NCBI GenBank assembly: GCA_002342295.1
Contig: DDPR01000014.1
Coordinates: 1-32,000, forward strand
Source: Burkholderiales bacterium UBA2463
GTDB lineage: Bacteria > Pseudomonadota > Gammaproteobacteria > Burkholderiales > Burkholderiaceae_A
DNA: 32,000 nucleotides
Direction of reading: 5' to 3'
Position numbers and translations under genes: made by a program. Position 1 is the first letter of the stretch. Each line of letters begins with the position of its first letter. Below the pieces are notes generated by a model that saw only the letters and a list, made by a program, of their open reading frames with translations, ran no database searches and was not told the origin of the DNA. This document shows positions 1-20,010 of this stretch, one piece after another.

Positions 1-131
1 TGTACTCTCCCTAGTAGTAGCGTTGTTGAAGATCCCACTCTAGCCTATCACTTGCCTAGTGTCAATGCCTACTTGTGCTAATCATAGAGTTCAGCTACGA
101 TTAAAAGTCACAAACTACAGTAGGAGCTCTA

Positions 132-695
132 ATGTTTAAGATGTTTTTTGAGTATGAAGTAGGCAGAGAAGCCAATGACTTAGTTCAATCTCTATCATTG
201 CTGTTTCTTACTCCTACTTCAAACATCATTGCTGATGATGTCTGGGCTACTGGTATAAGCAGAAAAAGGAAAATAGAAAACTTATCCATTAACGAGCTAC
301 TTACATACACAGTTTGTAGAATTAAAGGTGTTCCATCTATGACTGTAGTTGATTTCAAAAAACCCTTTAAGTCGGATGATAAGTTTATAGATAGTTTCAA
401 AGATAATTATCTTGGAACAGTTAGAGAAAAAGTTTCTAAAGCTGATCTTGTGAAACTAGCAAAATTACAGTCTAAACTTGAATATAACGGCTACATAAGT
501 AACTGGCTTAATCCACGCTTTCCAAATCTTAAAAGTAGTTTTGAAGATGCTGGTCTAACTGAACAAGAATGTAAGGAACTTGAGAAACTATATAAAGTCT
601 CAAATAAGCCAGTAGATGATTGGATAAAATCCAAAAGAGATGATATAAAAAATGAGATAAAACCTCTTACTAAATTCATTGTAAGAGGTTTCTAA
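132..695 (+). CDS. Hypothetical protein (187 aa), island cargo
   Basis: ATG at 132 is preceded by AGGAG (122-126) with a 5-nt spacer. A 187-codon ORF is unlikely by chance in AT-rich DNA. I recognise no motif. Confidence 0.6.
   Translation: MFKMFFEYEVGREANDLVQSLSLLFLTPTSNIIADDVWATGISRKRKIENLSINELLTYTVCRIKGVPSMTVVDFKKPFKSDDKFIDSFKDNYLGTVREKVSKADLVKLAKLQSKLEYNGYISNWLNPRFPNLKSSFEDAGLTEQECKELEKLYKVSNKPVDDWIKSKRDDIKNEIKPLTKFIVRGF
661..690 (-). terminator. Perfect 10-bp stem / 10-nt loop hairpin, probable intrinsic terminator for the minus-strand recombinase operon, embedded in the last codons of the convergent 132-695 ORF
   Basis: AACCTCTTAC (661-670) and GTAAGAGGTT (681-690) are exact reverse complements. 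On the minus strand the hairpin starts 7 nt after the recombinase stop (697-699) and is followed by TTATCTCATTTTTTAT (reverse complement of 645-660). Confidence 0.55.
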
Positions 696-696
696 A

Positions 697-1272
697 TTAA
701 ACTAGTTCAACTGCCTTACGCATCATGTCATCACTAGCATCAATGTACACCATTGTTGTTTGTGCCGACTTGTGACCCATTAGCTTTTGTAGAACTCTAA
801 TGCCCACGCCTTTGCTACTGATTTGAGTAGCAAAAGACCTACGCATTGAATGGCTTGATGCGTTATCAATTCCGCAAGCTGAAAACAAGTAGTGCCAATA
901 CTGTGTAAGTGTATTAGGACTAAATCCATCACTACTCTTTTTCTGCGAGTAAAACAGCTTACGCTTTCGGTCTGTAATGTCCAATGTCTTTACATAAGCA
1001 TCTAGCTCTTTGTACAGCTTATCGCTAATGTAAATTGTTCTAGCTACATTACCTTTTGTAATGTCGGCCTTGAGTAGAATTTCACGCTTAACATTGCCTT
1101 CGCAATCTACAGCATCTTCAATGCGTAAAGCACTAGTCTCCCCTACCCTAGTGCCAGCACAGTACATTAAATGAAGCATAGCCCTATTTCTAGCACTATG
1201 CTTGCGTGTAGCTATGTAATCAAGTACTCGTCTAAATTCTTGCTGTGTTAATGTCTTAGCTTGCTTTGCCAT
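697..1272 (-). CDS. Small tyrosine recombinase/integrase (about 191 aa, essentially catalytic core only)
   Basis: Catalytic signature is readable: Arg in AGTRVGE, H-x-x-R in HSMRRSF, His in MGHKS, Tyr in TTMVYID. I prefer the ATG at 1272 (MAKQAKTLTQQEF...) because GAGGTG lies 6 nt upstream. The track start at 1362 has no SD. Confidence 0.85.
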   Translation of the reverse strand: MAKQAKTLTQQEFRRVLDYIATRKHSARNRAMLHLMYCAGTRVGETSALRIEDAVDCEGNVKREILLKADITKGNVARTIYISDKLYKELDAYVKTLDITDRKRKLFYSQKKSSDGFSPNTLTQYWHYLFSACGIDNASSHSMRRSFATQISSKGVGIRVLQKLMGHKSAQTTMVYIDASDDMMRKAVELV

Positions 1273-1577
1273 CTTGCTCACCTCAAATGTAATGTTTTCT
1301 ACATTTTTAGTGTATTGTCTTGTATTAGAAATTCCTACCTCTTTTTTGTCTTTTTGTGTCATAGTGTTTTCTTGTTCAAAATCAACGACTTAGCTGTTAT
1401 TTTCATCAAAATATAACAAAATGTGCTATTTTCTTATATTTGCTTGTTAGCGCCGTTGCTATAGTGCCACACTTATTTAACTGTTTGCGTACAAGCCCTA
1501 CAAGCTGTTGATACGCTGTTTTGCTGTCCTAGTATTCAGCGTACAGTTTTAAGCGTTTGTAGCTTGTTCTAGTGCGT

Positions 1578-2030
1578 CTAATTGCTTTCTGTAATATGTA
1601 TAGCGTTTACAAAATCTATTATTTCAATGTCAGCAATATTAATTTCTTCATAATTAACTACAATTTTGCTCTTAATTAGCCATCCATCTATTCCATCTTC
1701 TTCACTAATCTTATTTCCCTCTTCATCTTCACCATAGTCGTATCTTTGTATTTCAAAAGTCCACTTTAATTGATGTAGATTTCCAGTTAATGTTAAATTA
1801 GCATTTTCCATCATAAAGTCAGGTGATAGAACAAAGTTTATGTCACAGTACCTATCTTCTTTATTAAAGTCTACTGACCATATCTGTACACACGATAATT
1901 TAGGTCTAAAATACGCATTACGCTCTATAGCTTCTTCTACAGTAATAACATCTTGCGTATCACCACTAAGTGCGTGTATTGCTTTAATTGATAGTCTATA
2001 TAAAGTTGACTCAAAGACCCTAGCATCCAT
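1578..2030 (-). CDS. Hypothetical acidic protein (150 aa)
   Basis: ATG at 2030 with GAGGTG 5 nt upstream. By my count there are 29 Asp/Glu and 13 Lys/Arg. It is co-directional with the HUH-like gene upstream and the recombinase downstream. No recognisable motif. Confidence 0.6.
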   Translation of the reverse strand: MDARVFESTLYRLSIKAIHALSGDTQDVITVEEAIERNAYFRPKLSCVQIWSVDFNKEDRYCDINFVLSPDFMMENANLTLTGNLHQLKWTFEIQRYDYGEDEEGNKISEEDGIDGWLIKSKIVVNYEEINIADIEIIDFVNAIHITESN

Positions 2031-2100
2031 ATCAACACCTCGCTATGTAGTTGATGATATTATATAACACCTAGCTTATTTTTGGCAAAGCTACGCTAAT

Positions 2101-2121
2101 TAAGCACTCATTAAGTGCTTA
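2101..2121. repeat. Perfect 8-bp stem / 5-nt loop hairpin followed by tandem TTAACC(A/G) heptamers
   Basis: TAAGCACT (2101-2108) and AGTGCTTA (2114-2121) are exact reverse complements with loop CATTA. TTAACCATTAACCG follows immediately. It lies 46 nt downstream of the HUH-like gene stop. Confidence 0.5.
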
Positions 2122-2166
2122 TTAACCATTAACCGCAAGCGTCAACTAAGGACTGGAGTGCTTAGA

Positions 2167-2724
2167 TTAGTAAAAGTAAAGTCTATTCAACTCTAACTTA
2201 TCAATCTTTTTTGTAATGTATCCCGACCAACCTTCTGTAATCTCTTCAACTTTATATCTATACATCTTGTCCTCACTATCTTTGTCGGCACGATAGTTAG
2301 GATTGCTCATTTCAAATTCACCACTCAACTCTATAGCTTTTACAATCTGTTTATGAAAGTCTTCGCTTGTGTAGCTATCTGGCTTTTGTAGCAAGAAGTG
2401 AGTGTGTAAATCAACACAGCTACTGTTATCTCCTTCTATGCTTGCTATAGCTACTAACTTCTTCCCATCACGCTTATATGCGTTTTTTAGAACAAGTTTA
2501 TTAATCAAATGTACAAGTCTAGAGTTTGCTCGTTCTAGCTCATCTTTTGTTAAGTGTCTGTACACCTTACCATCAACAACATAGCGTGACTTTGGAACAT
2601 ATTTGTAAAACACCTTCTTTGGCATAACAGTAAGACCTTGTGTCAATCCAAGTTCTTTAGCACTTGTCAGCCACTTCACTACTTCTAATCTGTTATCTTT
2701 TTTAGTTACTAATTGTTCAAGCAT
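2167..2724 (-). CDS. HUH-superfamily-like protein (185 aa): putative rolling-circle Rep / Y1 endonuclease, YagK/inovirus-Gp2-like
   Basis: Motif H-T-H-F-L-L at residues 107-112 (codons 2406-2389) and G-Y-I-T-K-K with Tyr169 (2220-2218) and Lys172, 62 residues downstream. This matches the HUH ... Y-x-x-K spacing of Y1 HUH enzymes. ATG at 2724 with AGGTG 5 nt upstream. Motif-level call only. Confidence 0.45.
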   Translation of the reverse strand: MLEQLVTKKDNRLEVVKWLTSAKELGLTQGLTVMPKKVFYKYVPKSRYVVDGKVYRHLTKDELERANSRLVHLINKLVLKNAYKRDGKKLVAIASIEGDNSSCVDLHTHFLLQKPDSYTSEDFHKQIVKAIELSGEFEMSNPNYRADKDSEDKMYRYKVEEITEGWSGYITKKIDKLELNRLYFY

Positions 2725-2900
2725 CTTTACACCTATATTTTTTGTATAGATATATTTATGCTTTATATAAGGATAGTGTAAATTTTTATGAAAAAGTTAT
2801 ATTAATCAACAAGTTACGGCAGATTTTGAAAGTATTTTGGTAGGAAAAATGGCTAAAAGGTATTACATTAACTATTCCTTTAACTACTTTGGAGTATGAA
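2725..2900. promoter_or_regulatory. AT-rich divergent intergenic region, presumed promoters for the minus-strand (HUH-like) and plus-strand (2901) genes
   Basis: A 176-nt, very AT-rich spacer lies between two divergently oriented genes that both have strong SD sequences. I could not pick unambiguous -35/-10 hexamers. Confidence 0.35.
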
Positions 2901-3344
2901 ATGGCTACTATGTCCGCACTTAAACTTGTTACAAGCAAGAAACAATCTACTGTTAGCCCAATAGTAAATCGCCGATTGAAATTGCTTGCTAAAGTACAAG
3001 AGCAAATTGAGCTTTGTACAGCTAAGAAAGATGGAAATACTTACGCACCAAAGCGTCTAAAAACATTCACAGATAAGGTGACTGGAGAACGCAAAACTAT
3101 TGAAACAGTTAAGCGTGTTAAAGAATGGTTCTGGATTAGCGACACAGGTAAGATTCATCTTGCTATCAAATATGGCTCTAAGACGCTTATGCTAAACAAG
3201 AAAGGTGCTAATGCTATTGAAGTTAGCAATGGTGATGAGCTAATTAGCACACTTAAACACATCGCAGGCTCTATTGAAAATGGTGAACTAGATGAGTTTA
3301 TTAATGATGTTAGTAAAGCTACAAGAGATAGCTTCGTAAAGTAA
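2901..3344 (+). CDS. Small conserved hypothetical protein (147 aa), resembles a family seen in proteobacterial genomic islands
   Basis: GGAG (2891-2894) lies 6 nt before the ATG at 2901 (MATMSALKLV...). The track start at 2889 is a TTG. The pattern MSALKL...RR.KL...Q..L....G..Y.P...KT..D..TGE...KRVK.WFW matches from memory a family I believe is Pfam DUF6641. This is unverified. Confidence 0.6.
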   Translation: MATMSALKLVTSKKQSTVSPIVNRRLKLLAKVQEQIELCTAKKDGNTYAPKRLKTFTDKVTGERKTIETVKRVKEWFWISDTGKIHLAIKYGSKTLMLNKKGANAIEVSNGDELISTLKHIAGSIENGELDEFINDVSKATRDSFVK

Positions 3345-3358
3345 TATTGTTTATCAGC

Positions 3359-3395
3359 AAGTATCCTTTTCTATAAATATAAGAAAAGGATACTT
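3359..3395. promoter_or_regulatory. Perfect 13-bp inverted repeat with 11-nt AT loop; the right arm contains the SD of the 3399 ORF
   Basis: AAGTATCCTTTTC (3359-3371) and GAAAAGGATACTT (3383-3395) are exact reverse complements with loop TATAAATATAA. AAGGA (3386-3390) is the only SD for the ATG at 3399. Confidence 0.55.
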
Positions 3396-3398
3396 TGT

Positions 3399-3725
3399 AT
3401 GAGACTATTTGAATTTACAAATGCTGAAGAACAGCTTAAGCTATTACAACTAATATTTGATACTACTTTTAGCACAATTAGACAGCAAGCTGAACAACAA
3501 GCTAGAGAAAAAGCAGAACAGGCTAGAGTAGCTAAGTTAAAGCCTAAGCGTAAATCTAGCATCAAGCCTAAGTCCATACCAAGTGTTAAAGCACCACCCC
3601 CACCAAAGCCCCCTACTAAGCCTAGTACATCTACTGCCAACCCTAACCAACCCCTAGCTAAATCTAGTCAACCCCCTAGTAATTTATCTAGTCACCCTAC
3701 CCAACCCCCCAACAAATATACCTAA
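3399..3725 (+). CDS. Coiled-coil plus Pro/Lys/Thr/Ser-rich low-complexity protein (108 aa as read; probably frameshifted, see findings)
   Basis: ATG at 3399 with AAGGA 8 nt upstream. The N-terminal part is helical and Gln/Glu/Ala-rich, followed by a KPKRKSSIKPKSIPSVKAPPPPKPPTKPS... tail. Similar composition continues in the +1 frame to 3879. Confidence 0.5.
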   Translation: MRLFEFTNAEEQLKLLQLIFDTTFSTIRQQAEQQAREKAEQARVAKLKPKRKSSIKPKSIPSVKAPPPPKPPTKPSTSTANPNQPLAKSSQPPSNLSSHPTQPPNKYT

Positions 3726-3990
3726 TACCCTACCTAATAAAACAGTAGCCCCCACAGCTTTACCCCACATAAAGCCCATACCCCCTATCAAGCCTACTGT
3801 GGCTACCAAGTACCCTATTAAACCCAAACATAATAAACATCTACACCCCTTAGAAGATGACGATACAGATAGCTACTAGAAATGGGTTCTAGCTTGCTAA
3901 AAAATTGGGCTACGGTTTTTTTAGGTGAAGTACTTAAACTTTTGGGGTGGTGATTTTTTACCTATACCCCCATCACTTTTGCTGTAAATG

Positions 3991-4019
3991 CGTCTTTCGG
4001 CGTTAAAGACGGGTTTTTT
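3991..4019 (+). terminator. Rho-independent terminator closing the plus-strand 2901-3879 gene pair
   Basis: CGTCTTT (3991-3997) and AAAGACG (4005-4011) form a perfect 7-bp stem with loop CGGCGTT, followed by GGTTTTTT. A second imperfect hairpin (GGGGTGGT ... ACCtatACCCC, 3944-3970) precedes it. Confidence 0.6.
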
Positions 4020-4081
4020 ACCCATTTTTAATAGTAAATTACAAAACCATGCTCATGGTGACGACAGGCATAGTTAAAATA

Positions 4082-5344
4082 CTATTTGGGAATAATTATT
4101 CCATCTATTGTGTAATAGCCAGCCATTGCTTGAGTCGTTAATATATCTTCATCAATATGGTAATAAGTTTTCTCAATTTGAGTCCTACTTGTTCCACACA
4201 TATCAGCCACATCTTTATAGCTTAGTCCTGCCTTAATTCTGTTCGTTATAAAGTAATGTCTAAAGCTATAAGGTACTAACTTTCTCTTTCCTATGTCTAT
4301 TTTCGCCTCTTCTAGTATCTTCTTAAAATGATGTGTTACTGCTCTTTGACTTACAACATTTACTCCATTAAAACTAAACACATAGTTTTCTGCGAATGGC
4401 TTCTTTGTATGTGTAGGAGTAGTTAACTTGAATAAGTTATCAAAATACTCTATATCTCTTATCTTTACTACACGAGGCTTTCTTACTTTACTTGTTTCTT
4501 TTCTAACACTTATCTTTACAAAATCTATCTCTTCTTTGTTTATTGTTTCATTAGAAAAAGTAATGTCTTTCCATTTCAATTGCTTTTGCTCACCTGTTCT
4601 TAATCCACAAATTGAAGCTATTAATAGATAGTGACCAGACAGTACTCTTGCTTTATTTTCTAAGTCGTTTAAGTCCTTCATTGCCTCTTCTATGTATTTT
4701 GGTATAGCGGCTCTAAAAGCTCTTACTTCTTCATCTGTAAATGATGATCTTCTTACAGCTTCTTCTGGTGTATTTCTAATTGATATTGTTTCAAAGTCAA
4801 ATCCATCAATATAAACTTCACCTTTTTTGTGAAGCCATTTCATCATCGAATTTATAGTACTTTGCTCATTAGCTATGGTAGATAGTGCTGTAGTTTTTGT
4901 AGCACTTGGTTTTTCTCTTGCCTTAGCATATTCAGCACAGCTATCTCTATCTAGCTCTTTTAGCTTTGTATCACGCTCTATAAAGTCTAGCCAATGCTCT
5001 AAATGTGCTCTTATAGTTCCGTATCTACCCTTAACTATGCTCTTAGTTGTTCTACTATCAATGTGTCCTTTTCTATACTCTAAGTACATTAATACACCAT
5101 CTTTAGCTGTCCTAGAGTAGTATGTTCTTCCACTATCAGTAACAGACTTAATACTGACAAAGTGTTTTTTAGCTCTTTCTGTAGCTATATCAACATTCTT
5201 TGTCTTTAAGCTAAGTCTCACATACCTACGCTCTTTTTCTAGCCAATAGCGAAACTGCCATATGTCACCCCTTTTGTAGATAACAGCTTCTTCGTAAATT
5301 GGTATTTCTTCACCATCTACAAATGTCTTTTTCTTAAGCGTCAT
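4082..5344 (-). CDS. int: Tyrosine-type site-specific integrase (420 aa), att-proximal integrase of the island
   Basis: Arg in CGLRTGE. The C-terminal segment YSFRHYFITNRIKAGLSYKDVADMCGTSRTQIEKTYYH aligns without gaps to XerD [38 protein letters not shown]. I prefer the ATG at 5344 (MTLKKKTF...); the track start at 5416 is a TTG. Confidence 0.88.
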   Translation of the reverse strand: MTLKKKTFVDGEEIPIYEEAVIYKRGDIWQFRYWLEKERRYVRLSLKTKNVDIATERAKKHFVSIKSVTDSGRTYYSRTAKDGVLMYLEYRKGHIDSRTTKSIVKGRYGTIRAHLEHWLDFIERDTKLKELDRDSCAEYAKAREKPSATKTTALSTIANEQSTINSMMKWLHKKGEVYIDGFDFETISIRNTPEEAVRRSSFTDEEVRAFRAAIPKYIEEAMKDLNDLENKARVLSGHYLLIASICGLRTGEQKQLKWKDITFSNETINKEEIDFVKISVRKETSKVRKPRVVKIRDIEYFDNLFKLTTPTHTKKPFAENYVFSFNGVNVVSQRAVTHHFKKILEEAKIDIGKRKLVPYSFRHYFITNRIKAGLSYKDVADMCGTSRTQIEKTYYHIDEDILTTQAMAGYYTIDGIIIPK

Positions 5345-5425
5345 TTTTAGGCTTGGGTAGTTACAGTTTTGAGTTGCTACTTTGCTGTGTAGCAAGTTGT
5401 GTAAATGTAACTTCAAATAGCACCT

Positions 5426-5448
5426 AAACGCAAGTGTTTTTTGCGTTT
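5426..5448. repeat. 8-bp inverted repeat in the integrase-guaA spacer
   Basis: AAACGCAA (5426-5433) and TTGCGTTT (5441-5448) are exact reverse complements with loop GTGTTTT. Two TTTGTGT(G/A)A 9-mers follow at 5446-5454 and 5457-5465. Confidence 0.5.
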
Positions 5449-5503
5449 GTGTGATTTTTGTGTAACTTTAAGCCCTTATAAATCAAGCACTTAGGCTCAA
5501 TTA

Positions 5504-7150
5504 CTACTCCCACTCAATCGTCGCAGGGGGTTTTCCAGAAATGTCGTACACCACGCGATTAATACCGCGTATCTCGTTGATGATGCGATTTGAGACCTGG
5601 GCTAAGAGGGCATGGGGCAGTTGTGCCCAATGCGCCGTCATGAAGTCACTGGTGACCACCGCGCGCAGCGCCACAACCCATTCATAGGTGCGTCCGTCTC
5701 CCATGACACCGACCGATTTGACAGGCAGAAAGACAGCGAACGCCTGACTGGTGAGCTCATACCAGGAGCGGCCGACATCGTGGGCCTCGCAGAGTCCGGC
5801 ATGGGCGTCGGCCTCAGTTGCTCGGGTCTGACGCAGCGCCTGAGTGAACAAATCGTCCGCGCGCTGAAGGAGGGTGACATACTCCGGATGGATCTCGCCC
5901 AGAATACGAACGCCAAGACCGGGGCCGGGGAAGGGATGCCGGTGGACCATATCGGCTGGAAGCCCCAAAGCCAACCCAAGCGCCCGCACCTCGTCCTTGA
6001 ACAACTCGCGCAGAGGCTCCAGTAGCTTCAGGTGAAGGGTCTCGGGAAGCCCACCCACATTGTGATGGCTCTTGATACTTGCAGCCTTCTTGCTCTTCGC
6101 GCCGGCGGACTCGATGACATCGGGATAGATGGTTCCCTGCGCGAGCCAGCGGGCGCGGCTGAGTCTGGCAGCCTTCTCTTGGAAGATCTCAACAAAGAGT
6201 CGTCCAATCGTCTTGCGTTTGGCCTCGGGGTCGCTGAGCCCCCGAAGGGCCTCAAGAAAACGATCGGCTGCATGGACATGGATGACCCGAACCCCAAGAC
6301 CCCGGGCAAATGTCTCCATCACCTGCTCTGCCTCGTTCAACCGCAAGAGACCGTGATCCACAAAGACGCAGGTCAGGCGATCTCCGATGGCCTTGTGAAC
6401 GAGCGCCGCTGCAACGGAAGAATCGACTCCGCCGGAGAGGCCAAGAATGACCTCATCGGAACCGACCTGATGCTGAATAGACTCAATGGCCTCTTGCGCA
6501 TAGTCCGGCATATTCCAGTCGCGGCCCGCACCACAGATTCCGTGTACGAAACGCTCAATGATGTCCCGACCCTTCTTGGTGTGAGTGACCTCCGGATGGA
6601 ACTGAAGGCCATAAAAGTGTCGAGACTCATCTGCCATGCCCGCGATGGGGCAGCTCGGTGTGGAGGCCATGAGCCGGAAGCCGTCTGGAAGCTCGGTGAC
6701 CTTGTCACCATGGCTCATCCAAACATCCAGAAGGCCATGCCCCTCGGGCGTTCGGTGATCCTCAATATCCGTTAGAAGTTGAGTGTGGCCGTGCGCCCGC
6801 ACCTGCGCGTAACCGAACTCGCGGACCTTTCCGGTCTCCACAAGACCCCCCAGTTGCTCGGCCATGGTCTGCATTCCGTAACAGATGCCAAGCACGGGAA
6901 CCCGTCGCAGAAAAACGGCTGTTGGGGCTCGGTGGGTCTCTGCCTCGGTCACGGACATGGGGCCGCCCGAGAGGATGATTCCCTTGAGGCTATCGACCTC
7001 CCCGACTTGCCCGAAGCGATGAACAAAGTCATCCGACACATCACAGGGATGAATCTCGCAGTACACGCCGGCTTCACGCACACGGCGCGCAATCAGCTGG
7101 GTGAGCTGAGAGCCAAAGTCAAGAATGAGAATCTTGGCGTGGGAAGTCAG
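5504..7150 (-). CDS. guaA: GMP synthase (glutamine-hydrolysing)
   Basis: Conserved N-terminus [21 protein letters not shown], the [11 protein letters not shown]-pyrophosphatase motif and the C-terminus [15 protein letters not shown]. The start is uncertain: there is no ATG/GTG/TTG between the guaB stop and the conserved N-terminus. I list the CTG at 7150. The track start at 7315 overlaps guaB and I reject it. Confidence 0.93.
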
Positions 7151-7151
7151 A

Positions 7152-8615
7152 CTAATCAGCCCGGTAGTTTGGTGCTTCCTTCGTGATCTGCACGTCGTGG
7201 ACGTGAGATTCGCGAATGCCCGCTGAGGTGATCTCGACGAATTCGGCCTTGGCATGCAGCTCATCGATGGAGCGACATCCGCAGTAGCCCATGCTCGATC
7301 GAAGCCCGCCCGCAAGCTGAAAGATGATCTGCTTCACGCTGCCCTTGTAGGGTACGCGCCCCTCAATACCCTCTGGAACGAATTTGTCCGCGCCCGGGCT
7401 CTGCTCCTCTTGGAAGTAACGATCGGCAGATCCAGCCTGCATGGCGCCAACAGAGCCCATTCCTCGGTAAGACTTATAGGAGCGACCCTGAAAGAGAACC
7501 ACCTCTCCCGGAGCCTCCTCGGTCCCAGCGAACATGCCGCCCATCATGACGGTGCTGGCCCCGGCGGCCAGCGCTTTGGCAATGTCACCTGAGAATCGGA
7601 TACCGCCATCAGCAATGAGTGGAACCCCGCTACCAGCGAGGGCGTCTGCCACATTTGCAATCGCCGAGATCTGGGGAACTCCAACGCCCGCCACGATGCG
7701 CGTGGTGCAGATCGACCCCGGACCAATGCCCACCTTCACTGCATCGGCGCCGCTATCGAGCAGAGCGCGCGCTGCGTCGGCGGTGGCAATGTTGCCCCCA
7801 ACAACCTGAACCTGCGGGTACTTGGACTTCACCCATGAGACTCGATCGAGCACGCCTCGAGAGTGACCGTGGGCTGTATCAACCACGATGACATCGACCC
7901 CTGCCTCCACCAAGAGCGCGACTCGCTCGTCTGTGCCCTCTCCGACCCCCACCGCAGCCCCGACAAGAAGCTTGCCCTGCTCATCGCGGGCGGCATGGGG
8001 ATGCTCAATGCCCTTGAGAATATCTTTGACAGTGATGAGGCCTCGGAGTTGAAAGTCCTCGGATACGACCAGCACGCGCTCCAGGCGATGCTTGTGCATG
8101 AGGGCCTTGGCCTCCTCAACGGAGGCGCCCTCTGGCACTGTTACGAGGCGCTCTTTGGGGGTCATGATGGCGCGAATCGGCTGGTCGAGCCGACTCTCAA
8201 AGCGAAGGTCTCGGTTGGTCACAATACCCACGACATGGCCGTTTTCCACCACGGGTAGGCCTGAAATTCGGCGCTCCGCGCAGAGGGTGAGAACCTCTCG
8301 CACCGACATGGTTGGGCTGATGGTGACCGGGTCCTTGACAACACCCGCTTCAAAGCGCTTTACGCGTGCAACCTCCGAGGCCTGAGCCATCGGGGGGAGA
8401 TTCTTGTGGATGATGCCGATCCCGCCCTCCTCCGCAAGGGCGATCGCCAGCCGCGCTTCGGTGACGGTGTCCATAGCCGCCGAGACCACCGGGAGGTTGA
8501 GGTAGAGAGACCGCGTGAACCGAGAGACAAGAGAGGTGTCTTTCGGGAGGATCTCCGAGCGCGCGGGAACGAGCAGCACATCGTCGAAGGTCAGGGCCTT
8601 TTGAAGCACGCGCAT
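7152..8615 (-). CDS. guaB: IMP dehydrogenase
   Basis: 487 aa, [18 protein letters not shown]..., tandem CBS region, the [11 protein letters not shown] active-site loop, and a C-terminus typical of IMPDH. ATG at 8615. Confidence 0.97.
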
Positions 8616-8651
8616 CAGGGGATCCGAAAGAGGGTCGTTTCCAAGACCAGA

Positions 8652-9017
8652 TTATATCGATCGGCCGCGAGTCCAGCGATCCGATAGGCCCTGCCGCGCT
8701 CGAGCCTGCCTCTGAGCCCTCACACGCTCTTGTCTGGCCTGTTTTGGGTCGGCCACAAGAGGTCGCAGAATCTCGATCCGATCGCCTGCGCTCAGAGGGT
8801 CATCCGGCGCTCGAAGAGAGCCAAAGACGGAAAAAGCAGCGGCCTTATCCCAGGCCGCACAAAGCTCCGGCAATAAATCTGCGCATCGACGCACATCTTG
8901 GAGGTGGGCCCCGGCTCGAAGAGTCAAACGCTGACGAAACGCGCCAGTCAGATTGGCCGAGACGACCTCGACCTCAATTGGGGGTTGAATGAAGGAGGGA
9001 CTAGAGTCGTTTCCCAT
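8652..9017 (-). CDS. rnfH: RnfH family (UPF0125) ubiquitin-like protein
   Basis: IEVEVVSA ... GDRIEILRPLVADPKQARQERV matches the RnfH signature. The only canonical start upstream of the first strand is the ATG at 9017, which overlaps ratA by 17 nt. The track ORF to 9206 is an over-extension. Confidence 0.8.
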   Translation of the reverse strand: MGNDSSPSFIQPPIEVEVVSANLTGAFRQRLTLRAGAHLQDVRRCADLLPELCAAWDKAAAFSVFGSLRAPDDPLSAGDRIEILRPLVADPKQARQERVRAQRQARARQGLSDRWTRGRSI

Positions 9018-9441
9018 AGATGGCCTCCGCCCGCTGAACGAATGCATCCACCATGCTGACGGTGATGTGCTCGAAGACCGGTCCGACAAGGCGCTCGAGG
9101 AGTCTGGAGCTGAAGTGGTAGTCCAGCTCAAACCCCACCTTGCAGGCGGCCTCGGTGAGGGGGCTAAAGCGCCAATGGCCCGCCAGAGCCTTAAAGGGAC
9201 CGTCATGAAGCGTCATCTCGATGCGTTCGCCGTGGTCGTGAAAGTTACGCGTGGTGAATGACTGTCGCAGCCCCTTAAAGGCGATCTGAACCTGGGCGAG
9301 CCGACTCCCGTCCTCAAGTGGCCGGACTGAGGCCCCCGCACACCATGGTAAAAAGGCGGGGTAGGACTCAACATCAGAGACGAGCTGAAACATCTCTTCC
9401 GAGGAGTAAGGCACGAGCACTGACTTCACGACTTCTGGCAT
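9001..9441 (-). CDS. ratA: SRPBCC-family protein RatA/YfjG (COQ10-like ubiquinone-binding protein)
   Basis: 146 aa, [34 protein letters not shown]..., and the conserved smpB / ratA-rnfH divergent arrangement. Confidence 0.88.
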
Positions 9442-15931: not shown

Positions 15932-17109
15932 TTGAGCAGCCCGTCCAAAATTGTTGCGACCCGAGACGCAGTGTTGCATTTCAGGCGCTCATGCAGGGCT
16001 CGGCATTCATTCTCGTAGCGCTGAACACGCGCTGCATCGCAGACAAAAGACTCGAGCGCGCGCGCAAGGGCGACCGCCTCGCAATCGTCCTGTACGAGCT
16101 CTGGAACAAGGTCCGGATGGACAAGTAAGTTGGGTAGTCCAATTCGGCTTACCAGCGCCTTGTTTCTCATCATGCGATAAGTAAGAGCCGGAACTCGGTA
16201 GCCAATCACCTGTGGACGCTTAAAGAGGGCCGCCTCAAGCGTTGCGGTTCCGCTGGCCACCAAAGCCGCCTCGCAGGCCTGCAACACCAAGTGGGAGATG
16301 GGCCGACCCACCTGGCAAGACTCGGGCAAGACAGGGCCCACCAGACGAACGCCTCGCTGCTGCGCACGCGGCCAACTCTTGAGCGCCTTGAGTCTTGGTC
16401 CGAGCTCCTCGGAGGCAAGCGGGATGAGAACCTCAAATCGATCGGCAAGGACACATGCGGCGCCCAAAAAGGCCTCCCCCACCAGTCGAATCTCCGAGTC
16501 TCTCGATCCGGGCAGAACCGCCAAGATCGGGCGCGCCGAGGCTGCCATTCCAAGGAGTTCTCGAGCCTGTCCTCGATCCGGAGCCTCTGGGATAAGGTCA
16601 GCAAGCGGGTGTCCGACATAGTGAGCCTGGACCCGCGTCTCTCTGTAGCAGTCGGGCTCGAAGGGAAAGAGGCAGAGCATGTGATCGACGGCCTCGGCAA
16701 TACGGCGAAGACGCTCTGGTCGCCACGCCCATATGGATGGACTCACCAGATGCACAGTGGGGATTCCCTCGCGTCGAAGACTCGCCTCGAGGGTGAGGTT
16801 GAAGTCGGGTGCGTCAACGCCCAAAAAAAGCCTAGGGGGTCTCGAAATGAGCCGAGCGCGCACATCTCTTCGGATGGCAAGAATCGACCCAAGCCGAGAG
16901 AGGGCTTCAAGATAACCTCTAACCGCAAGCCTCTGGGCATCGTGCCAACAATCCATACCCAGCGCCCGTAAATGAGAGCCCCCTATTCCCTCAAGGGCAA
17001 GCGAGCCGCCGCGGGAGGATCGAGCCCGCAGGAGCTGGCCCAGGGACTGCGCGGCAATGAGATCACCGGACGCCTCTCCGGCGACCAGTGCGAGTCGCTC
17101 AGGCGCCAT
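15928..17109 (-). CDS. lpxB: Lipid-A-disaccharide synthase
   Basis: 393 aa, LALVAGEASGDLIAAQ N-terminus, in the lpxA-lpxB-rnhB position. Confidence 0.93.
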   Translation of the reverse strand: MAPERLALVAGEASGDLIAAQSLGQLLRARSSRGGSLALEGIGGSHLRALGMDCWHDAQRLAVRGYLEALSRLGSILAIRRDVRARLISRPPRLFLGVDAPDFNLTLEASLRREGIPTVHLVSPSIWAWRPERLRRIAEAVDHMLCLFPFEPDCYRETRVQAHYVGHPLADLIPEAPDRGQARELLGMAASARPILAVLPGSRDSEIRLVGEAFLGAACVLADRFEVLIPLASEELGPRLKALKSWPRAQQRGVRLVGPVLPESCQVGRPISHLVLQACEAALVASGTATLEAALFKRPQVIGYRVPALTYRMMRNKALVSRIGLPNLLVHPDLVPELVQDDCEAVALARALESFVCDAARVQRYENECRALHERLKCNTASRVATILDGLLK

Positions 17110-17114
17110 GGACG

Positions 17115-17900
17115 CTAGCGAACGATTCCCCGCCCGGGTGCAGCCAAGAATTCCGTGAAGGGCTGCAGGGCCGCTGCGCAGTCGGTGGACGCCTCCTCCT
17201 CTGCGATACGAGTGAGAGCCTCGGCCAGCGTCAGACCCGTCTTGTAGACGGTCTTGTAGGCACGACGAAGGGTTGCAATCTGCTCTTCGGAAAAGCCTCG
17301 GCGACGCAGTCCTTCCGAGTTCACCCCATGGGCCGCGGCGGGATTCCCGGTGGCCATCACATAAGGCGGAAGATCCTGAATCAGCGTGGTTCCCGCCCCT
17401 GTCATGGCATGGGCACCAATACGAACAAACTGATGGACGCCCGTGATGCCACCGAGTATGGCCCAGTCCCCAACTTTCACGTGGCCCGCCAGCTGAACTG
17501 AATTGGCCATGATGACGTGCGAGCCCACCGAGCAGTCATGGGCGATGTGGACATAGGCCATGATCCAGTTGTCACTGCCAATTCGCGTGACCCCAGCATC
17601 CTGCGCTGTCCCGATGTTGACTGTGCAGCACTCCCGAAAGGTGTTCCGGTCGCCGATCTCGAGTCGAGTCTGCTCTTGCGCGTACTTTTTATCCTGGGGG
17701 ATGTTTCCAATGACTGCGTGCGAGTGAATCACATTCTCGGCCCCAAGGGTCGTGTGTCCGATGACCTGAGCAAACGGCATGAGGCGGCAGCCCTCCCCAA
17801 GCTTTACATGCGGCCCAACGATGCAGAAGGCCCCAATCTCAACAGAACTGTGGAGCTGCGCGCCGGAATCGACCAGTGCTGTGGAGTGAATCGTCGCCAT
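17115..17900 (-). CDS. lpxA: Acyl-ACP--UDP-N-acetylglucosamine O-acyltransferase
   Basis: 261 aa, IHSTALVDSGAQL..., hexapeptide repeats, in the fabZ-lpxA-lpxB order. Confidence 0.95.
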   Translation of the reverse strand: MATIHSTALVDSGAQLHSSVEIGAFCIVGPHVKLGEGCRLMPFAQVIGHTTLGAENVIHSHAVIGNIPQDKKYAQEQTRLEIGDRNTFRECCTVNIGTAQDAGVTRIGSDNWIMAYVHIAHDCSVGSHVIMANSVQLAGHVKVGDWAILGGITGVHQFVRIGAHAMTGAGTTLIQDLPPYVMATGNPAAAHGVNSEGLRRRGFSEEQIATLRRAYKTVYKTGLTLAEALTRIAEEEASTDCAAALQPFTEFLAAPGRGIVR

Positions 17901-18359
17901 TCAGCTGGTCTTCTGGCCCTGGGGAATTTCGCGAAGGGCGCACATCAGGTCGGCCTCTGCGGCGATCTGCCCATCAACGAGGGCCTTGGCCTTGTACTTC
18001 CATATCCCTCTCGCGTGCCGTTCGATATGCACCTCCAGCATCAGGACATCACCGGGACAGACGGGTCGTTTAAACCGCGCGTTGTCGATGCCAACAAAAA
18101 AATAGATGGACTCCTCATCGGCTTTGCTCTCAATCGTCTTAAACGAGAGGATGCCGGCTGCCTGTGCAAGGGCCTCAATGATGAGCACCCCGGGCATCAC
18201 TGCATAGTGAGGAAAGTGTCCGTTGAAGAACTCCTCGTTCCGAGTGACATTCTTCTGGGCCAAGATTCGCTCGCCCGGTGTGAGTTCGAGCACACGATCA
18301 ACCAAGATGAATGGGTAGCGGTGAGGAAGTGTGTCGAGGATTTCGCGGATATCCATCAT
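17901..18359 (-). CDS. fabZ: 3-hydroxyacyl-ACP dehydratase
   Basis: [25 protein letters not shown]...FFNGHFP...[15 protein letters not shown] at 18359; the track extension to 18539 runs into lpxD. Confidence 0.95.
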
Positions 18360-18384
18360 AGAAAGTGTCCGTTTTCTTTTTGTC

Positions 18385-19446
18385 TTAAGAGGTTTCGTTT
18401 GTTTTCCTGAGAGCTCGAACCTGATCACGAAGACTCGGAAGTCGGCGAACCATGACGGCAGACTTTTCCCACTCGCCCTCGGTCTGAAGCGGATAGACGC
18501 CGACGTATTTTCCGGATTCTCTGATTGAAGACATGACAAGGCTCATGGGGCCAATGACCGTGTGGTCCGCAATCTGAAGGTGGCCAAGGATGCCCGCGGC
18601 CCCCCCAATCTGGCAGTGACGGCCGATGCGGGCACTGCCGGCAATACCCACGCATCCTGCAATGGCAGTGTGATCGCCGATGAAGACGTTGTGCGCCACC
18701 TGAATGAGGTTATCGAGCTTTACACCGTCGCCCAGCACGGTATCGGAGAGGGTTCCGCGGTCGATCACGGTGTTTGCGCCGATCTCAACGTCATGGCCAA
18801 TGCGCACCGACCCCGTCTGAGGAATCTTCTCCCAGGTCTGAGCGGGCGTGGGCGCGAAACCAAATCCATCCGAGCCAATGACTGCGCCTGACTGAATCAC
18901 GACGCGCTCCCCAATCTGCACACTTCGGCCAACAAATACTCGGGCGTGAATGAGCGCCCCCCTGCCGATCTGCGCGCCAGACTCAACCACGGTCTGCGCG
19001 CCAATGTCGCAGTCGTCGCCAATCTGCGCCCCCGCCTCGATGACCACGCCCGCACCTATACGAAGCCTCATCCCAAGCCTGGCCTGCTCGTGAACCACCG
19101 CGCTGGGGTGAATCTGCGTGGTTAGCACCTCTTGGACTCGTTGGCGAGCCAACAGCATCTGGGCAGCGCGGGCAAAGTAGAGGTAGGGATCGTCCGTGAC
19201 GATCGCGCTGCCGGCCTTGGGCCTTGACCCCTCGAGGCCCGGTGGGATTAGCACCAGGCCTGCACGTGACTGCCGAAGACGGTCTTTGAGGCGATCGTGA
19301 ACGACAAACGCAGCCTCGTCTGGCCCGGCCTCATCGAGAGCGGAAAAACGACGCACTACGAAGGAGCCGTTACCCAGAAGCCGGCCACCCAGGTGGGCGA
19401 CCAGTTCTGCGGCCGTCAGACTATTTGGCTGTGGCGGCTTGACCAT
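18385..19446 (-). CDS. lpxD: UDP-3-O-(3-hydroxyacyl)glucosamine N-acyltransferase
   Basis: 353 aa, [19 protein letters not shown]-terminus, a long hexapeptide-repeat region. The start overlaps the skp 3' end by 26 nt. Confidence 0.94.
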
Positions 19447-19948
19447 TCAAGGCGCGAAGCACCTTTTCGGTGATGTCGATGCGCGGGGAGGCGTAGACCG
19501 CCTCCTGAAAAATGATGTCGTATTTCTCGGACTCTGCGATCTGACGAATCGCCTTGTTTGCGCGCTCAACCACCACCGCGAGCTCCTCGTTCCGACGCTG
19601 GTTCAGATCCTCCCGGAACTCCCTCTGTCGCCGCTGGAGATCGCGCTCAAGGTCAGTGATTTCACGCTGTCGCTTGCCCCGGTCAGCCTCGCTGATCACG
19701 GGCGCATCTCGCTCAAGCTTCTCGGACATGCCCTTGAGCTTGGTGGCGAGCTCTTGAATCTCTTTTTCCCGCTTTGAGAACTCCCCTTCGAGCTTCTTTT
19801 GAGCAGCCTTGGCCATGGCCGCATCTCGAAGAACGCGCTCCGTGCTGACAAACCCAACCTTGGCCTCAGCCATGGCAGCCTGAGGGCAGTACAAGGCAAG
19901 TCCAGCCAGGGCAAAGCAGGAGAGAAAACTCTTTGATATCGCGCGCAT
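19421..19948 (-). CDS. skp: OmpH/Skp periplasmic chaperone
   Basis: Signal peptide MRAISKSFLSCFALAGLALYCPQAAMA, then a Lys/Glu-rich coiled coil. Position is between bamA and lpxD. ATG at 19948; the track start at 19966 is a TTG. Confidence 0.88.
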   Translation of the reverse strand: MRAISKSFLSCFALAGLALYCPQAAMAEAKVGFVSTERVLRDAAMAKAAQKKLEGEFSKREKEIQELATKLKGMSEKLERDAPVISEADRGKRQREITDLERDLQRRQREFREDLNQRRNEELAVVVERANKAIRQIAESEKYDIIFQEAVYASPRIDITEKVLRALNGQAATAK

Positions 19949-20010
19949 GATGAGTCGGGGTGTCAAGGGGTTGAGCGAATAATCCTTAGTGTCTCACAGC
20001 AGTCTGGGCT

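Follow-up and report, generated by a model that had tools for sequence, protein, structure and literature searches.

A low-GC island in the last codons of guaA is a probable site-specific integrative element of an uncultured freshwater betaproteobacterium

Results

Composition and genes of the locus

We analysed a 32,000-nt stretch of DNA from Burkholderiales bacterium UBA2463 (contig DDPR01000014.1, positions 1 to 32,000), hereafter the window, whose composition changes abruptly near its left end. Counted in 500-nt windows, GC content was 32-43% over positions 1-5500 and 53-65% over 5501-32000, with means of 35.2% for 1-5507 and 59.6% for 5516-32000. This bears out the jump that an earlier note, made from the sequence by eye, had described. 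The low-GC part and its junction with the chromosome contain the following features.

1..131, no strand: end of the contig inside the island; the element runs on for ~1.15 kb, spanned by the sister contigs L001 and L002
132..695, plus: 187-aa ORF, variable cargo slot 2; unrelated 183- and 188-aa ORFs occupy it in the Polynucleobacter islands L013 and L014
697..1362, minus: second, small tyrosine recombinase, 221 aa (Pfam PF00589, 1e-29)
1578..2030, minus: 150-aa ORF, variable cargo slot 1; the segment corresponds to L001 12776-13263
2167..2724, minus: 185-aa probable HUH rolling-circle Rep-like nuclease (motifs, remote homology, AF2 model)
2889..3344, plus: DUF6641 protein, backbone; 151 aa from TTG, 147 aa from the ATG at 2901
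3359..3395, no strand: perfect 14-bp stem with 9-nt loop (AAGTATCCTTTTCT-ATAAATATA-AGAAAAGGATACTT), between the DUF6641 and 108-aa ORFs
3399..3725, plus: 108-aa ORF, backbone family f2, proline-rich C-terminus; in 8 of 21 delimited islands
4082..5344, minus: integrase, 420-aa tyrosine recombinase, intact (Pfam PF00589 Phage_integrase, 7.7e-16)
5345..5507, minus: P′ arm of attP, also the integrase upstream region (70-locus alignment)
5504..7081, minus: guaA (GMP synthase), the integration target (Pfam GATase and GMP_synt_C; frame intact)
5504..5524, minus: attL 21-nt imperfect direct repeat GCGACGATTGAGTGGGAGTAG, the six terminal guaA codons and stop
5508..5515, minus: 8-bp identity core GAGTGGGA, read on the guaA strand; codes Glu-Trp-Gl(u); common to attL, attR and the empty attB

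In reverse complement, contig ERZ937313 k127_123157 (L008) matches the window over 15,081 nt without a single mismatch and stops at window position 1. Since the complete element measures 6,666 bp, about 1.15 kb of it lies outside the window; this portion corresponds to L001 14847-16009 and holds a 125-aa ORF, a DUF6803 ORF and the P arm with attR. The expectation that island cargo extends to the left of the window was thus correct for this ~1.15 kb and failed beyond it, and the low-GC DNA ends far short of a replicon-scale length. The whole island has a GC content of 34.8%, against 59.7% and 59.2% in its two flanks.

The island occupies the final codons of guaA

The guaA stop codon is at 5504-5506, and the true start of the gene is probably upstream of the GTG called at 7081. 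The attL repeat has a partner, GCCACTATCGAGTGGGAATAG, at L001 15989-16009, 6,666 bp away and identical at 17 of 21 positions. All four mismatches fall on synonymous third-codon positions, and the two repeats sit exactly on the two GC steps of the island. The earlier note had called for a search for such a repeat at the far low-GC boundary and for an island-free relative to define attB. The latter proved to be L097, a 99.75%-identical contig that aligns with L001 in two segments, 3308-9343 (99.77%) and 15989-20334 (99.75%), overlapping by 21 nt. attL reads GCGACGATT-GAGTGGGA-GTAG, and attR, at the far end and taken from the sister contig spanning the whole island, reads GCCACTATC-GAGTGGGA-ATAG. 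The empty attB of L097 (GCGACGATTGAGTGGGAATAGCC) is GCGACGATT-GAGTGGGA-ATAG, which corresponds to the left half of attL fused with the right half of attR, and leads directly into tadA; the island parts the two genes, which abut in the empty site. The GuaA protein is identical in the occupied and empty alleles, both finishing ATIEWE-stop.

At most, the element supplies guaA with the final base of its last Glu codon (GAA to GAG) and with the TAG stop. Because the empty site is native through GAGTGGGA, the island gives guaA only G+TAG and not 100 nt, which refutes a surrogate guaA 3′ end of about that length. The final 100 nt of the gene (5504-5603) are native sequence despite their lower GC, which we computed as 51% rather than the hand-counted ~49%; the island-free relative differs from them by one SNP and the final A-to-G. 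The junction of island and chromosome therefore lies at 5508-5515, within the final guaA codons, and the boundary previously set at ~5610 was ~100 nt too far to the right. What had been proposed as the integrase-side att junction of an island at the guaA 3′ end is indeed one, namely attL. An assembly chimera at the join is ruled out by recovery of the same junction in independent JGI, ENA and Logan assemblies (three pipelines) and by the matching repeat at the far end; together with the ~100-nt surrogate end, we give it practically no credence. All that spoke for these two readings was the hand-counted GC and the A/T-ending codons of 5504-5603.

Since GAGTGGGA is all that attL, attR and attB have in common, strand exchange is placed inside it. 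A secondary-site insertion (L119) shares only TGGGA with the core, which narrows the exchange region to these five bases. Across the family attL ends in GAGTGGGAG plus the stop in almost every locus, and attR reads G[TC]NACTA[TC][TC]GAGTGGGA, followed by host sequence.

The integrase and the arms of attP

The 420-aa tyrosine integrase reported earlier at 4082-5344 was confirmed by Pfam. Its ORF can be read from an upstream TTG (4082-5416, 444 aa) or from an ATG (4082-5344, 420 aa); because homologues have 419-420 aa and the ATG is aligned across 70 loci, we place the start at 5344. This ATG lies 159 nt beyond the guaA stop, and the gene, which shares the strand of guaA, reads away from it; the 87 nt given in the earlier note belongs to the in-frame TTG at 5416. 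The invariant residues of the integrase are R249, R362, H363 and Y394/Y395. No plasmid-borne relative exceeded 27% identity.

The P′ arm contains conserved blocks, namely TAAGTnnTTGATTT (twice in most loci), (G)TTACAC-type repeats and TTTCACA, as well as an inverted repeat, GCTACACA..TGTAGC, that covaries, with compensatory changes in three of four pairs. Its length and motifs are conserved over 70 loci, although the integrases are only 40-50% identical, and the P arm is conserved across the family as well. In the window island GTTACAC occurs four times (0.7 expected), every copy no more than 175 nt from an end. Being better conserved across the family than the integrase itself, the non-coding arms provide a map of probable binding sites. 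A promoter scan gave no signal above chance.

The backbone and its cargo slots

The backbone consists of the integrase, the DUF6641 protein, the probable HUH Rep, the second small tyrosine recombinase and variable cargo slots. The second recombinase, present in 20 of the 21 delimited islands, is a catalytic domain with next to no N-terminal domain; its Xer-type and FimB-type NCBIfam matches are all below cut-offs. An integron was considered and rejected: the small recombinase scores 61.9 bits on TIGR02249, for which the cut-off is 265, and no repeated attC-like sites are present. The DUF6641 protein (Pfam PF20346, 1.9e-13; phrog_31551, a PHROG of unknown function, 1.6e-17) is encoded in 13 of 21 islands, and its AF2 model (pLDDT 75) gave no fold match. 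The 108-aa ORF is the source of a local GC bump and has no credible family match.

The slots are where related islands differ. The slot-1 segment is missing or swapped in L013 and L014, islands otherwise 87-90% identical. The 150-aa ORF of slot 1 has no family match, and the 187-aa ORF of slot 2 matches no family or defence model. Relatives carry restriction-modification (type I, HindIII) and surface-sugar genes as cargo, and the window island carries unknown ORFs. Among all its ORFs, there is no recognisable excisionase, relaxase, transfer or capsid gene.

A probable HUH Rep-like nuclease

The 185-aa protein has three motifs in the order of Rep proteins: I (GLTVMPKK; uTuTu), II (LHTHFLL; HUHUUU) and III (YITK, in YITKK; YxxK). 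H107 and Y169 do not vary among 67 diverse relatives, in which H109 and K172 are at least 90% conserved. The protein shares homology with proteins of other islands that have the motifs ALTLQT, HIHIAL and YIGK (hhalign probability 98.4%). By itself it has no Pfam match at E <= 0.01, and 4 of 18 close relatives match weakly (best 0.0048). Of the 67 distant relatives, 49 match Pfam PF23343 REP_ORF2-G2P (best 9.8e-10), and one distant relative matches Pfam RepSA.

The AF2 model of the protein (pLDDT 80) points the same way. Its top Foldseek matches in the PDB were the nuclease domains of AAV Rep, MVM NS1, Helitron and WDV Rep (E 4.5e-3 to 0.1), with probabilities up to 0.98 and TM of only ~0.4. 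Against BFVD there were 65 matches at E <= 1e-3, including microvirus initiators; few of the top 50 carry names, and each named one is a replication initiator. By this transitive and structural assignment, the protein is probably an HUH rolling-circle Rep-like nuclease.

A modular family that moves between genera

The island is a member of a large, modular, AT-rich family moving between genera. We collected the integrase family from 80 genomes, mostly of Proteobacteria. The distance from the guaA stop to the integrase gene downstream of it is 162-190 nt (typically ~164 nt) in 68 of the 80 loci, and four further loci, cut by contig ends, show the end of guaA, so that the integrase is guaA-adjacent in at least 72 of the 80. 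The GC content of the integrase gene is below that of the host flank in nearly all 80 loci, with one clear exception in a SAR116 locus (L081). This fits the suggestion, made earlier, of an element that keeps its own composition. The delimited islands, 21 in number, range from 3.3 to 11 kb, and one locus (L062) holds islands in tandem.

An 87% DNA-identical backbone is found in Polynucleobacter (47% GC), whose GuaA is only 69-70% identical, and Limnohabitans (61% GC) has a truncated copy, 85% identical over ~0.9 kb. One identical integrase protein (P0030) adjoins at least five different guaA 3′ ends and one non-guaA site. In L011 and L012 another island variant stands behind the same guaA allele. 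We found no published description of the guaA-island family, which thus appears to be undescribed.

Discussion

The window feature is a real mobile island of a known kind; guaA islands are well known, and it is therefore unsurprising in itself. Very probably, positions 1-5515 make up most of a 6,666-bp site-specific integrative element that inserted in the last guaA codons of an uncultured freshwater betaproteobacterium and that works along the following lines. The 420-aa integrase would take the near-universal coding sequence of ATIEWE-stop as attB. It would assemble on an attP of ~370 bp, whose P and P′ arms hold repeats of the motifs (G)TTACAC and TAAGTnnTTGAT, and recombination would then proceed via a short overlap. 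The excised circle would probably be copied, or nicked for transfer, by the HUH Rep-like protein, and resolution of multimers or tandem arrays may fall to the second small tyrosine recombinase.

The HUH protein could, alternatively, be the relaxase of an integrative mobilizable element (IME), nicking an oriT so that the island rides a co-resident conjugative system, with no rolling-circle replication. Some streptococcal IMEs have HUH Rep-type relaxases; these elements are small and combine an integrase with an HUH protein in the absence of conjugation machinery, and the targets of streptococcal IMEs and ICEs include guaA (PMC5704250, PMC7563843). The window island likewise joins an integrase to a probable HUH protein without conjugation machinery, and both its lack of transfer genes and its spread across genera would suit mobilization. 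The streptococcal elements, however, have Firmicutes hosts and other integrase and Rep families. In addition, the HUH-before-Tyr order and the matches to REP_ORF2-G2P, RepSA and microvirus proteins are traits of replication initiators. Neither an oriT nor a coupling protein was identified in the island, searches of Pfam, NCBIfam and PHROGs found no relaxase, type IV secretion or coupling genes there, and no transfer machinery linked to guaA islands was found in these plankton. We consider mobilization of this kind unlikely, though worth keeping in view.

Considerably less probable is a satellite or degenerate prophage of a single-stranded DNA phage (microvirus or inovirus), packaged by a helper and using a phage-type Rep. 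Microvirus and phage replication initiators are the best structural matches of the Rep-like model, its distant relatives belong to the Pfam family that includes G2P of filamentous phages, DUF6641 has a PHROG match, and 6.7 kb resembles the genome size of such phages. Yet the 21 delimited islands all lack genes for a capsid, a Zot-like (Zot/pI) morphogenesis ATPase and coat-like proteins, no structural PHROG was matched, and the islands vary in size from 3.3 to 11 kb with such ordinary cargo as type I and HindIII restriction-modification genes. Among 50,697 phage records there was no close relative of the integrase (at best 27% identity, across part of its length), and IMG/VR yielded a single one, at 36% identity. 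Nor did the viral contigs of IMG/VR hold an attP-like junction of this family: the 13 matches to an attP-type pattern included none from it.

That the island is a fixed, immobile remnant, a domesticated insertion rather than an active element, is similarly improbable. A nonsense allele of the integrase (codon 88, TTA to TAA) in L001 and L002 makes the gene a pseudogene there and points to an immobilised copy in part of the population, and the integrases of L016, L077 and L079 are truncated or split. The IMG/VR pattern scan detected no circular form, and among integrase-carrying metagenome contigs none joined P arm, core and P′ arm as an excised circle would; both negatives also weigh against the reading favoured above. 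The integrase of the window, however, is full-length with its catalytic residues kept; occupied, empty and differently occupied alleles are all represented among near-identical genomes, and several hosts have an identical integrase.

A close parallel to the site-specific element that we favour is GIsul2, a 15.4-kb genomic island of Shigella, Enterobacter and Acinetobacter, whose core, 5′-GAGTGGGA-3′, is experimentally proven and whose secondary sites are reduced to TGGG/GGGA (PMC9376610). Both islands insert at the guaA 3′ end by a tyrosine integrase with an identical 8-bp core, have reduced secondary sites (L119 in the family studied here), place the integrase gene beside the guaA-side junction and carry, only probably in the case of the window island, replication genes of their own. 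The integrases, in contrast, are not specifically related (BLASTP E=2.2; hhalign probability 0.5%): GIsul2 Int is of the P4 type, with Arm-DNA-bind_3 (DUF4102-type arm-binding) and Phage_int_M domains, neither of which Pfam finds in the N-terminal part of the window integrase. GIsul2 carries alpA, IncQ-type repA/repC, trb remnants, ars genes and sul2, whereas the window island has the HUH Rep-like protein, the second small recombinase and DUF6641, and no AlpA-type, repA/repC or trb gene. The shared core has the look of convergence on a target that protein-coding constraint (ATIEWE-stop) keeps fixed. Such a target helps to account for the repeated use of guaA as a hotspot, and for the ability of one element to enter hosts of different bacterial classes.

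Other known systems resemble the island in part. The epsilon15/CMGI-3 cluster has IntSXT-type integrases, from phages and islands that all lie at the guaA 3′ flank (PMC8138268). These are, like the window integrase, tyrosine integrases targeting that flank, and differ from it in being IntSXT/P4-like and in coming from phages and large islands. The actinomycete integrative elements (AICEs) of the pSAM2 type are small elements with a tyrosine integrase and an HUH rolling-circle initiator, which excise, replicate as a circle and re-integrate; they occur in Actinobacteria, target tRNA genes, lack a second small recombinase and code for Xis as well as an FtsK-like transfer protein. The link to the window island that was examined is the one distant Rep relative matching RepSA. 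Tycheposons, described in marine picocyanobacteria, are cargo-carrying tyrosine-recombinase elements of genome-streamlined plankton that form tandem arrays at one site and bear niche or defence genes (bioRxiv 10.1101/2020.12.28.424599; for Methylophilaceae, PMC10872708). The tandem islands of L062 recall this arrangement; the tycheposons of these papers, however, use tRNA-gene flanks, and neither guaA nor GMP synthase is mentioned in bioRxiv 10.1101/2020.12.28.424599 or PMC10872708.

We suggest, tentatively, that the guaA islands could be minimal AT-rich integrative replicons that belong to an undescribed family, mainly of Proteobacteria, whose freshwater branch combines integrase, HUH Rep and a second small tyrosine recombinase. 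On this suggestion the family would have reached the GAGTGGGA site of GIsul2 with an integrase not specifically related to GIsul2 Int, the near-invariant ATIEWE-stop would act as a universal landing pad, and the islands may be a main shuttle of defence and surface-modification genes in streamlined freshwater and marine plankton (Polynucleobacter, Limnohabitans, Methylophilaceae, SAR116). An integrase, a probable HUH initiator and a second recombinase with swappable cargo, identical in several hosts, make a testable vehicle of gene flow in plankton. With attL, attR, attB and the inferred attP defined to the base, assays of excision and integration are straightforward.

One further feature of the island is the hairpin at 3359-3395, which has a DNA fold z-score of -4.2 (0 of 200 shuffles fold equally well) and is kept in the Polynucleobacter islands L013 and L014. 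Terminator, element of translational control and Rep origin are its candidate roles.

A 6,666-bp integrative element at the guaA 3′ end

Measured in 500-nt windows, GC content was 32-43% over window positions 1-5500 and 53-65% over the other 26.5 kb, with means of 35.2% for the island part of the window and 59.6% for the remainder, in agreement with the composition jump that an earlier note on this DNA had counted by hand. Three consecutive minus-strand genes lie here:

7152-8615, minus strand: guaB, the first of the three
5504-5506, minus strand: stop codon of guaA, the second
4082-5344, minus strand: tyrosine recombinase (integrase), 420 aa, Pfam PF00589 at 7.7e-16

The adjacency of integrase and guaA described in that note holds, but its spacing of 87 nt applies to an in-frame TTG at 5416; measured from the ATG at 5344, the guaA stop is 159 nt away. 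The window has no tRNA or tmRNA gene and matches no Rfam family, and the target is therefore guaA itself.

Read as its reverse complement, a 148-kb freshwater metagenome contig (ERZ937313 k127_123157; L008 among the loci and contigs compared here) matches the window exactly, and this contig stops at window position 1. An exact look-up of the 420-aa integrase gave no match, and contigs spanning the whole island were reached through a 254-aa product, as called from the nonsense allele of a sister contig. Two longer contigs of the same population cover the region, JGI Ga0119951_1000001 (394 kb, L001) and an ENA contig (312 kb, L002/L007). Over 14,846 bases, L001 and the window disagree at a single one; coordinates convert as window x = 14847 minus L001 position. 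Low GC in L001 extends from the guaA stop (L001 9343) to ~15990, where GC returns to 60%, and does not continue over a replicon-scale distance.

A repeat search of the L001 island revealed a direct repeat exactly at both composition boundaries. The copy at the guaA end is GCGACGATTGAGTGGGAGTAG (window 5504-5524); the second att repeat expected at the far low-GC boundary is indeed present 6,666 bp away, as GCCACTATCGAGTGGGAATAG; GC-rich DNA and a tadA-like deaminase gene begin immediately beyond it. The two copies differ at four positions, all of them synonymous third positions, and each encodes ATIEWE-stop. When a metagenome collection was queried with the core together with the host sequence right of attR (the far junction), two contigs were returned, one of them another occupied allele and the other an empty site (Ga0209189_1000085, L097). 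The latter aligns to L001 3308-9343 (99.77% identity) and 15989-20334 (99.75%), with a 21-nt overlap and no sequence between, and so provides the island-free relative that defines attB.

Att sites of the element
attB (empty site L097): GCGACGATT-GAGTGGGA-ATAGCCTTG
attL (guaA end): GCGACGATT-GAGTGGGA-GTAGTAATTG
attR (far end): GCCACTATC-GAGTGGGA-ATAGCCTTG
attP (inferred): GCCACTATC-GAGTGGGA-GTAGTAATTG
Predicted attP junction: TTTTTTATAGGAGCCACTATCGAGTGGGAGTAGTAATTGAGCC; attB junction: GCGACGATTGAGTGGGAATAGCCTTGCC

Comparison of attB, attL and attR places the deduced crossover within GAGTGGGA (window 5508-5515). Across the family, attL is nearly always GAGTGGGAG plus stop, and attR is G[TC]NACTA[TC][TC]GAGTGGGA, then host sequence.

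The feature is thus an integrative element, 6,666 bp long, of a kind that is well known, and it comes from a large coherent family. The earlier interpretation was right in kind and went wrong on two points. The part of the island beyond the window, whose size had been misjudged, is only ~1.15 kb. A surrogate 100-nt guaA 3′ end supplied by the island, cautiously raised before, is refuted because the last 100 nt of guaA in the empty site equal those of the window save one SNP and the final A/G, and the island gives only G plus TAG. These 100 nt measured 51% GC, against a hand count of about 49%.

The attP arms

Both arms of attP are conserved. The P′ arm, from the guaA stop to the integrase ATG, is ~165 nt long and strikingly conserved across the family; it carries the motifs TAAGTnnTTGATTT (twice in most loci), TTACACAAAA, TTTCACA and AGTTACAC. 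It also has an inverted repeat, GCTACACA..TGTAGC, three of whose four pairs show compensatory changes. The P arm, on the attR side, has a GTTACAC..GTGTAAC palindrome, a tandem GTTACAC pair and a TAAGTnnTTGAT block. GTTACAC occurs four times in this island, always within 175 nt of its ends, against 0.7 occurrences expected. We take the arm motifs to be putative arm-type binding sites plus an integrase control region.

Comparison with other elements at guaA

guaA is already known as an integration target. GIsul2 enters its 3′ end at 5′-GAGTGGGA-3′; excision and integration through this core by the GIsul2 integrase have been demonstrated, with a two-plasmid assay in recA-deficient E. coli among the methods, and the secondary sites of GIsul2 retain just TGGG/GGGA (PMC9376610). 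The end of E. coli guaA likewise reads GAGTGGGA. guaA is also the target of the epsilon15/CMGI-3 cluster of IntSXT-type integrases (PMC8138268). The 8-bp core deduced for the present element is the same as that of GIsul2. However, GIsul2 Int (extracted from plasmid pAB3) has no specific similarity to the window integrase, and homology between them was rejected (BLASTP E=2.2; hhalign probability 0.5%); GIsul2 Int has P4-type Arm-DNA-bind_3 and Phage_int_M domains, whereas the window integrase lacks both. With the same core and an unlike integrase, the element would, as judged from sequence, work like GIsul2 at the DNA level and is not a member of the GIsul2 family. The reduced secondary sites of GIsul2 also have a parallel: at L119 (~40-80), an island with the P0030 integrase, one protein of the family, occupies a non-guaA site (...CCAATCCTC-TGGGA-GTAGTAACTGAGCC) that has only TGGGA of the core in common.

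No close relative of the integrase was found in plasmid or phage records, and in IMG/VR a single contig carried a relative, at 36% identity. Together with the lack of phage structural PHROGs, this led us to reject a phage origin. Capsid and morphogenesis genes were absent from all islands compared, which argues against an ssDNA prophage.

Four IMG/VR contigs (L102, L105, L108 and L110) start or finish in a guaA 3′ end (...PPxTIEWE*) and continue into unrelated sequence; this end is thus used by other predicted prophages too.

Evidence for mobility

Occupied and empty alleles were found in genomes 99.75% identical. On two contigs (L011 6975-7123 and L012 2205-2451), exactly the same GuaA protein is followed, after TAG, by a different, related island variant (TTTTCTTTACGTAAGTCTTTGATTTATAAGGG...), and more than one type of element therefore occupies this site in the same species-level population. 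The P0030 integrase, identical in every residue, lies beside no fewer than five distinct guaA 3′ ends and in one case away from guaA. In a Pseudomonadales MAG (L062 3488-17260), two islands stand in tandem at guaA with a hybrid att site between them, and in Polynucleobacter nymphae (L014 17457-18418) ~0.9 kb of extra sequence after attR ends in a second native-looking guaA end (GCAACGATTGAGTGGGAATAA).

The integrase gene is intact in the window, L008 and L010. The sole difference of L001 and L002 from the window is one base (window 5082, L001 9765) that turns codon 88 from TTA (Leu) into TAA (stop), so part of the population has an inactivated integrase; split integrases in several relatives are further decaying copies.

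A search of IMG/VR for attP or a circular form with the pattern ACTAYYGAGTGGGAGTRR gave 13 matches; each was either an unrelated sequence or a different element sitting at a guaA end, and the arm motifs were missing from all. A 6.4-kb contig (L112) was not circular. The intergenic gaps of the island hold no plausible small ORFs for an excisionase, and no relaxase or transfer gene was found in the island. As no attP junction, circular contig, excisionase, relaxase or transfer gene was found, we only infer excision, replication and the route of transfer.

Gene content and a predicted Rep-like protein

Clustering of ORFs across 21 delimited islands placed the large integrase in all 21 and a second, small tyrosine recombinase (173-237 aa) in 20. 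Besides the integrase, the window contains:

697-1362: second small tyrosine recombinase, 221 aa, PF00589 at 1e-29, essentially a bare catalytic domain
2167-2724: ~180-200-aa protein of two related clusters, in 11 of the 21 delimited islands
2889-3344: DUF6641 protein, in 13 of the 21 delimited islands

For DUF6641, a profile search against PDB gave noise only, and the AF2 model had no meaningful Foldseek match. The 2167-2724 protein alone matched no family. In its alignment, L-H-x-H and Y-I-T-K are invariant and an LTV/LTL block lies upstream; the counterparts in the sister cluster are ALTLQT, HIHIAL and YIGK, and hhalign shows the homology of the two clusters (probability 98.4%). Together the blocks make up the motif triad of HUH rolling-circle initiators and follow one another as in Rep proteins. 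A profile search of 1.84 billion representative proteins returned 300 relatives. Across 67 aligned sequences, H107 and Y169 never vary, and H109 and K172 are at least 90% conserved; 49 of the 67 match Pfam PF23343, 'Replication-associated protein ORF2/G2P' (best 9.8e-10), and one matches RepSA of pSAM2. The AlphaFold model (pLDDT 80) matched in PDB the nuclease domains of AAV Rep, MVM NS1, Helitron and geminivirus Rep (E 4.5e-3 to 0.1), and 65 entries in BFVD at E <= 1e-3; the top 50 of these are mostly unnamed, and each of the few named ones is a replication initiator, microvirus ones included. Motifs, relatives and model together make the product of 2167-2724 a probable HUH Rep-like nuclease.

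Two hairpins were noted. One (window 3359-3395), between the DUF6641 and 108-aa ORFs, has a perfect 14-bp stem and an AT-only 9-nt loop; the likely ribosome-binding site for the 108-aa ORF falls in its 3′ arm, and the hairpin is kept in the Polynucleobacter islands. The other (window ~1409-1441) recurs between the Rep-like and small recombinase genes, at island positions L022 3440-3475, L037 4419-4454 and L056 3241-3278, with the stem AACCAAAGC/GCTTTGGTT in these three islands and the loops TAATATACAA, TAATACGCAA or, on the other strand, TAATAGTAAAAA. The loops recall the nonanucleotide loops of HUH Rep origins, in inconsistent orientation, and may be taken as a lead only.

A conserved backbone with variable slots

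The backbone is 87-90% identical to that of two Polynucleobacter islands (L013 and L014) and runs in the order attL, integrase, 108-aa ORF, DUF6641 and Rep; small recombinase; 125-aa ORF; P arm. It is broken by three slots whose contents vary between islands. Here they hold a 150-aa ORF, a 187-aa ORF and, beyond the window, a DUF6803 protein, none of which matched a known function or defence model; a PADLOC scan of all nine island ORFs was empty. In relatives, the slots contain a HindIII-type restriction-modification pair and, by sequence inspection, a type I R-M system, a methyltransferase with a DUF262-like nuclease, sugar-modifying enzymes and hydrolases. Two further readings were rejected: integron-like capture by the small recombinase, for which there were no attC-like repeats, and an invertible segment, since the inverted repeats near that gene are only 74-89% complementary and at odds with the gene layout.

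A local GC bump inside the island (window 3501-4000, 43%), with strong C-over-G skew, is due to the proline-rich C-terminus of the 108-aa ORF; a 356-nt gap with no credible ORF follows this ORF, and then the convergent integrase stop.

Host and effect on tadA

The 90%-identity cluster that holds the window's GuaA contains only proteins of uncultured 'Betaproteobacteria bacterium' MAGs, and the closest species-level genome in our scan is a Burkholderiales MAG with a GuaA 77% identical. In the empty site (L097 6025-6060; cf. L001 15998-16040, past the left end of the window), tadA abuts guaA, whose stop falls inside the tadA start region or immediately ahead of it; the insertion therefore puts 6.7 kb between tadA and guaBA. 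It also swaps the sequence upstream of tadA for the island P arm, which in this lineage places AGGAG 10 nt before the tadA GTG, the start called by the gene caller inside GAGTGGGA. A promoter scan, both general and outward towards tadA, gave 13 sites against 24.5 expected by chance, and thus no support for an outward promoter.

Distribution of the family

The protein collection contains 1,411 relatives of the integrase. Many are from freshwater metagenomes, and one, from Polynucleobacter nymphae, is 89% identical. When one genome per species was scanned with an alignment of the integrase, 80 loci came back; their sources are Beta-, Alpha- and Gammaproteobacteria, Desulfuromusa, and MAGs under the labels Acidobacteria and Bacteroidota. 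Of these loci, 68 have the guaA stop 162-190 nt upstream of the integrase, and four others, truncated at contig ends, retain a visible guaA C-terminus. In most of the rest the core follows non-guaA sequence, island-like in some, which suggests tandem or secondary sites. In nearly all loci the GC of the integrase gene is below that of the host flank (for example, 41% versus 67%), one exception being a SAR116 locus (L081). Delimited islands span 3.3-11 kb.

We found no published description of this family in the literature searched; it is probably already present, uncharacterised, in computational island catalogues such as TIGER/Islander (PMC12424338). Some MAG labels look implausible for the sequence (record titles of L040, L043, L076 and L082), for example 'Klebsiella pneumoniae' with a 67% GC flank, and likewise 'Bifidobacterium' and 'Candidatus Saccharimonas'; the GuaA in each of these examples is of betaproteobacterial type. 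How broad the family is taxonomically should be judged from isolates and well-curated MAGs only. On the chromosome of a Cellvibrionaceae MAG (OZ243947.1), two loci ~390 kb apart (L077 and L079) each have a guaA, at 61% identity to that of the window, followed by an island with the same split integrase; the pair could represent two copies of guaA, duplication of a large segment or a fault in the assembly.
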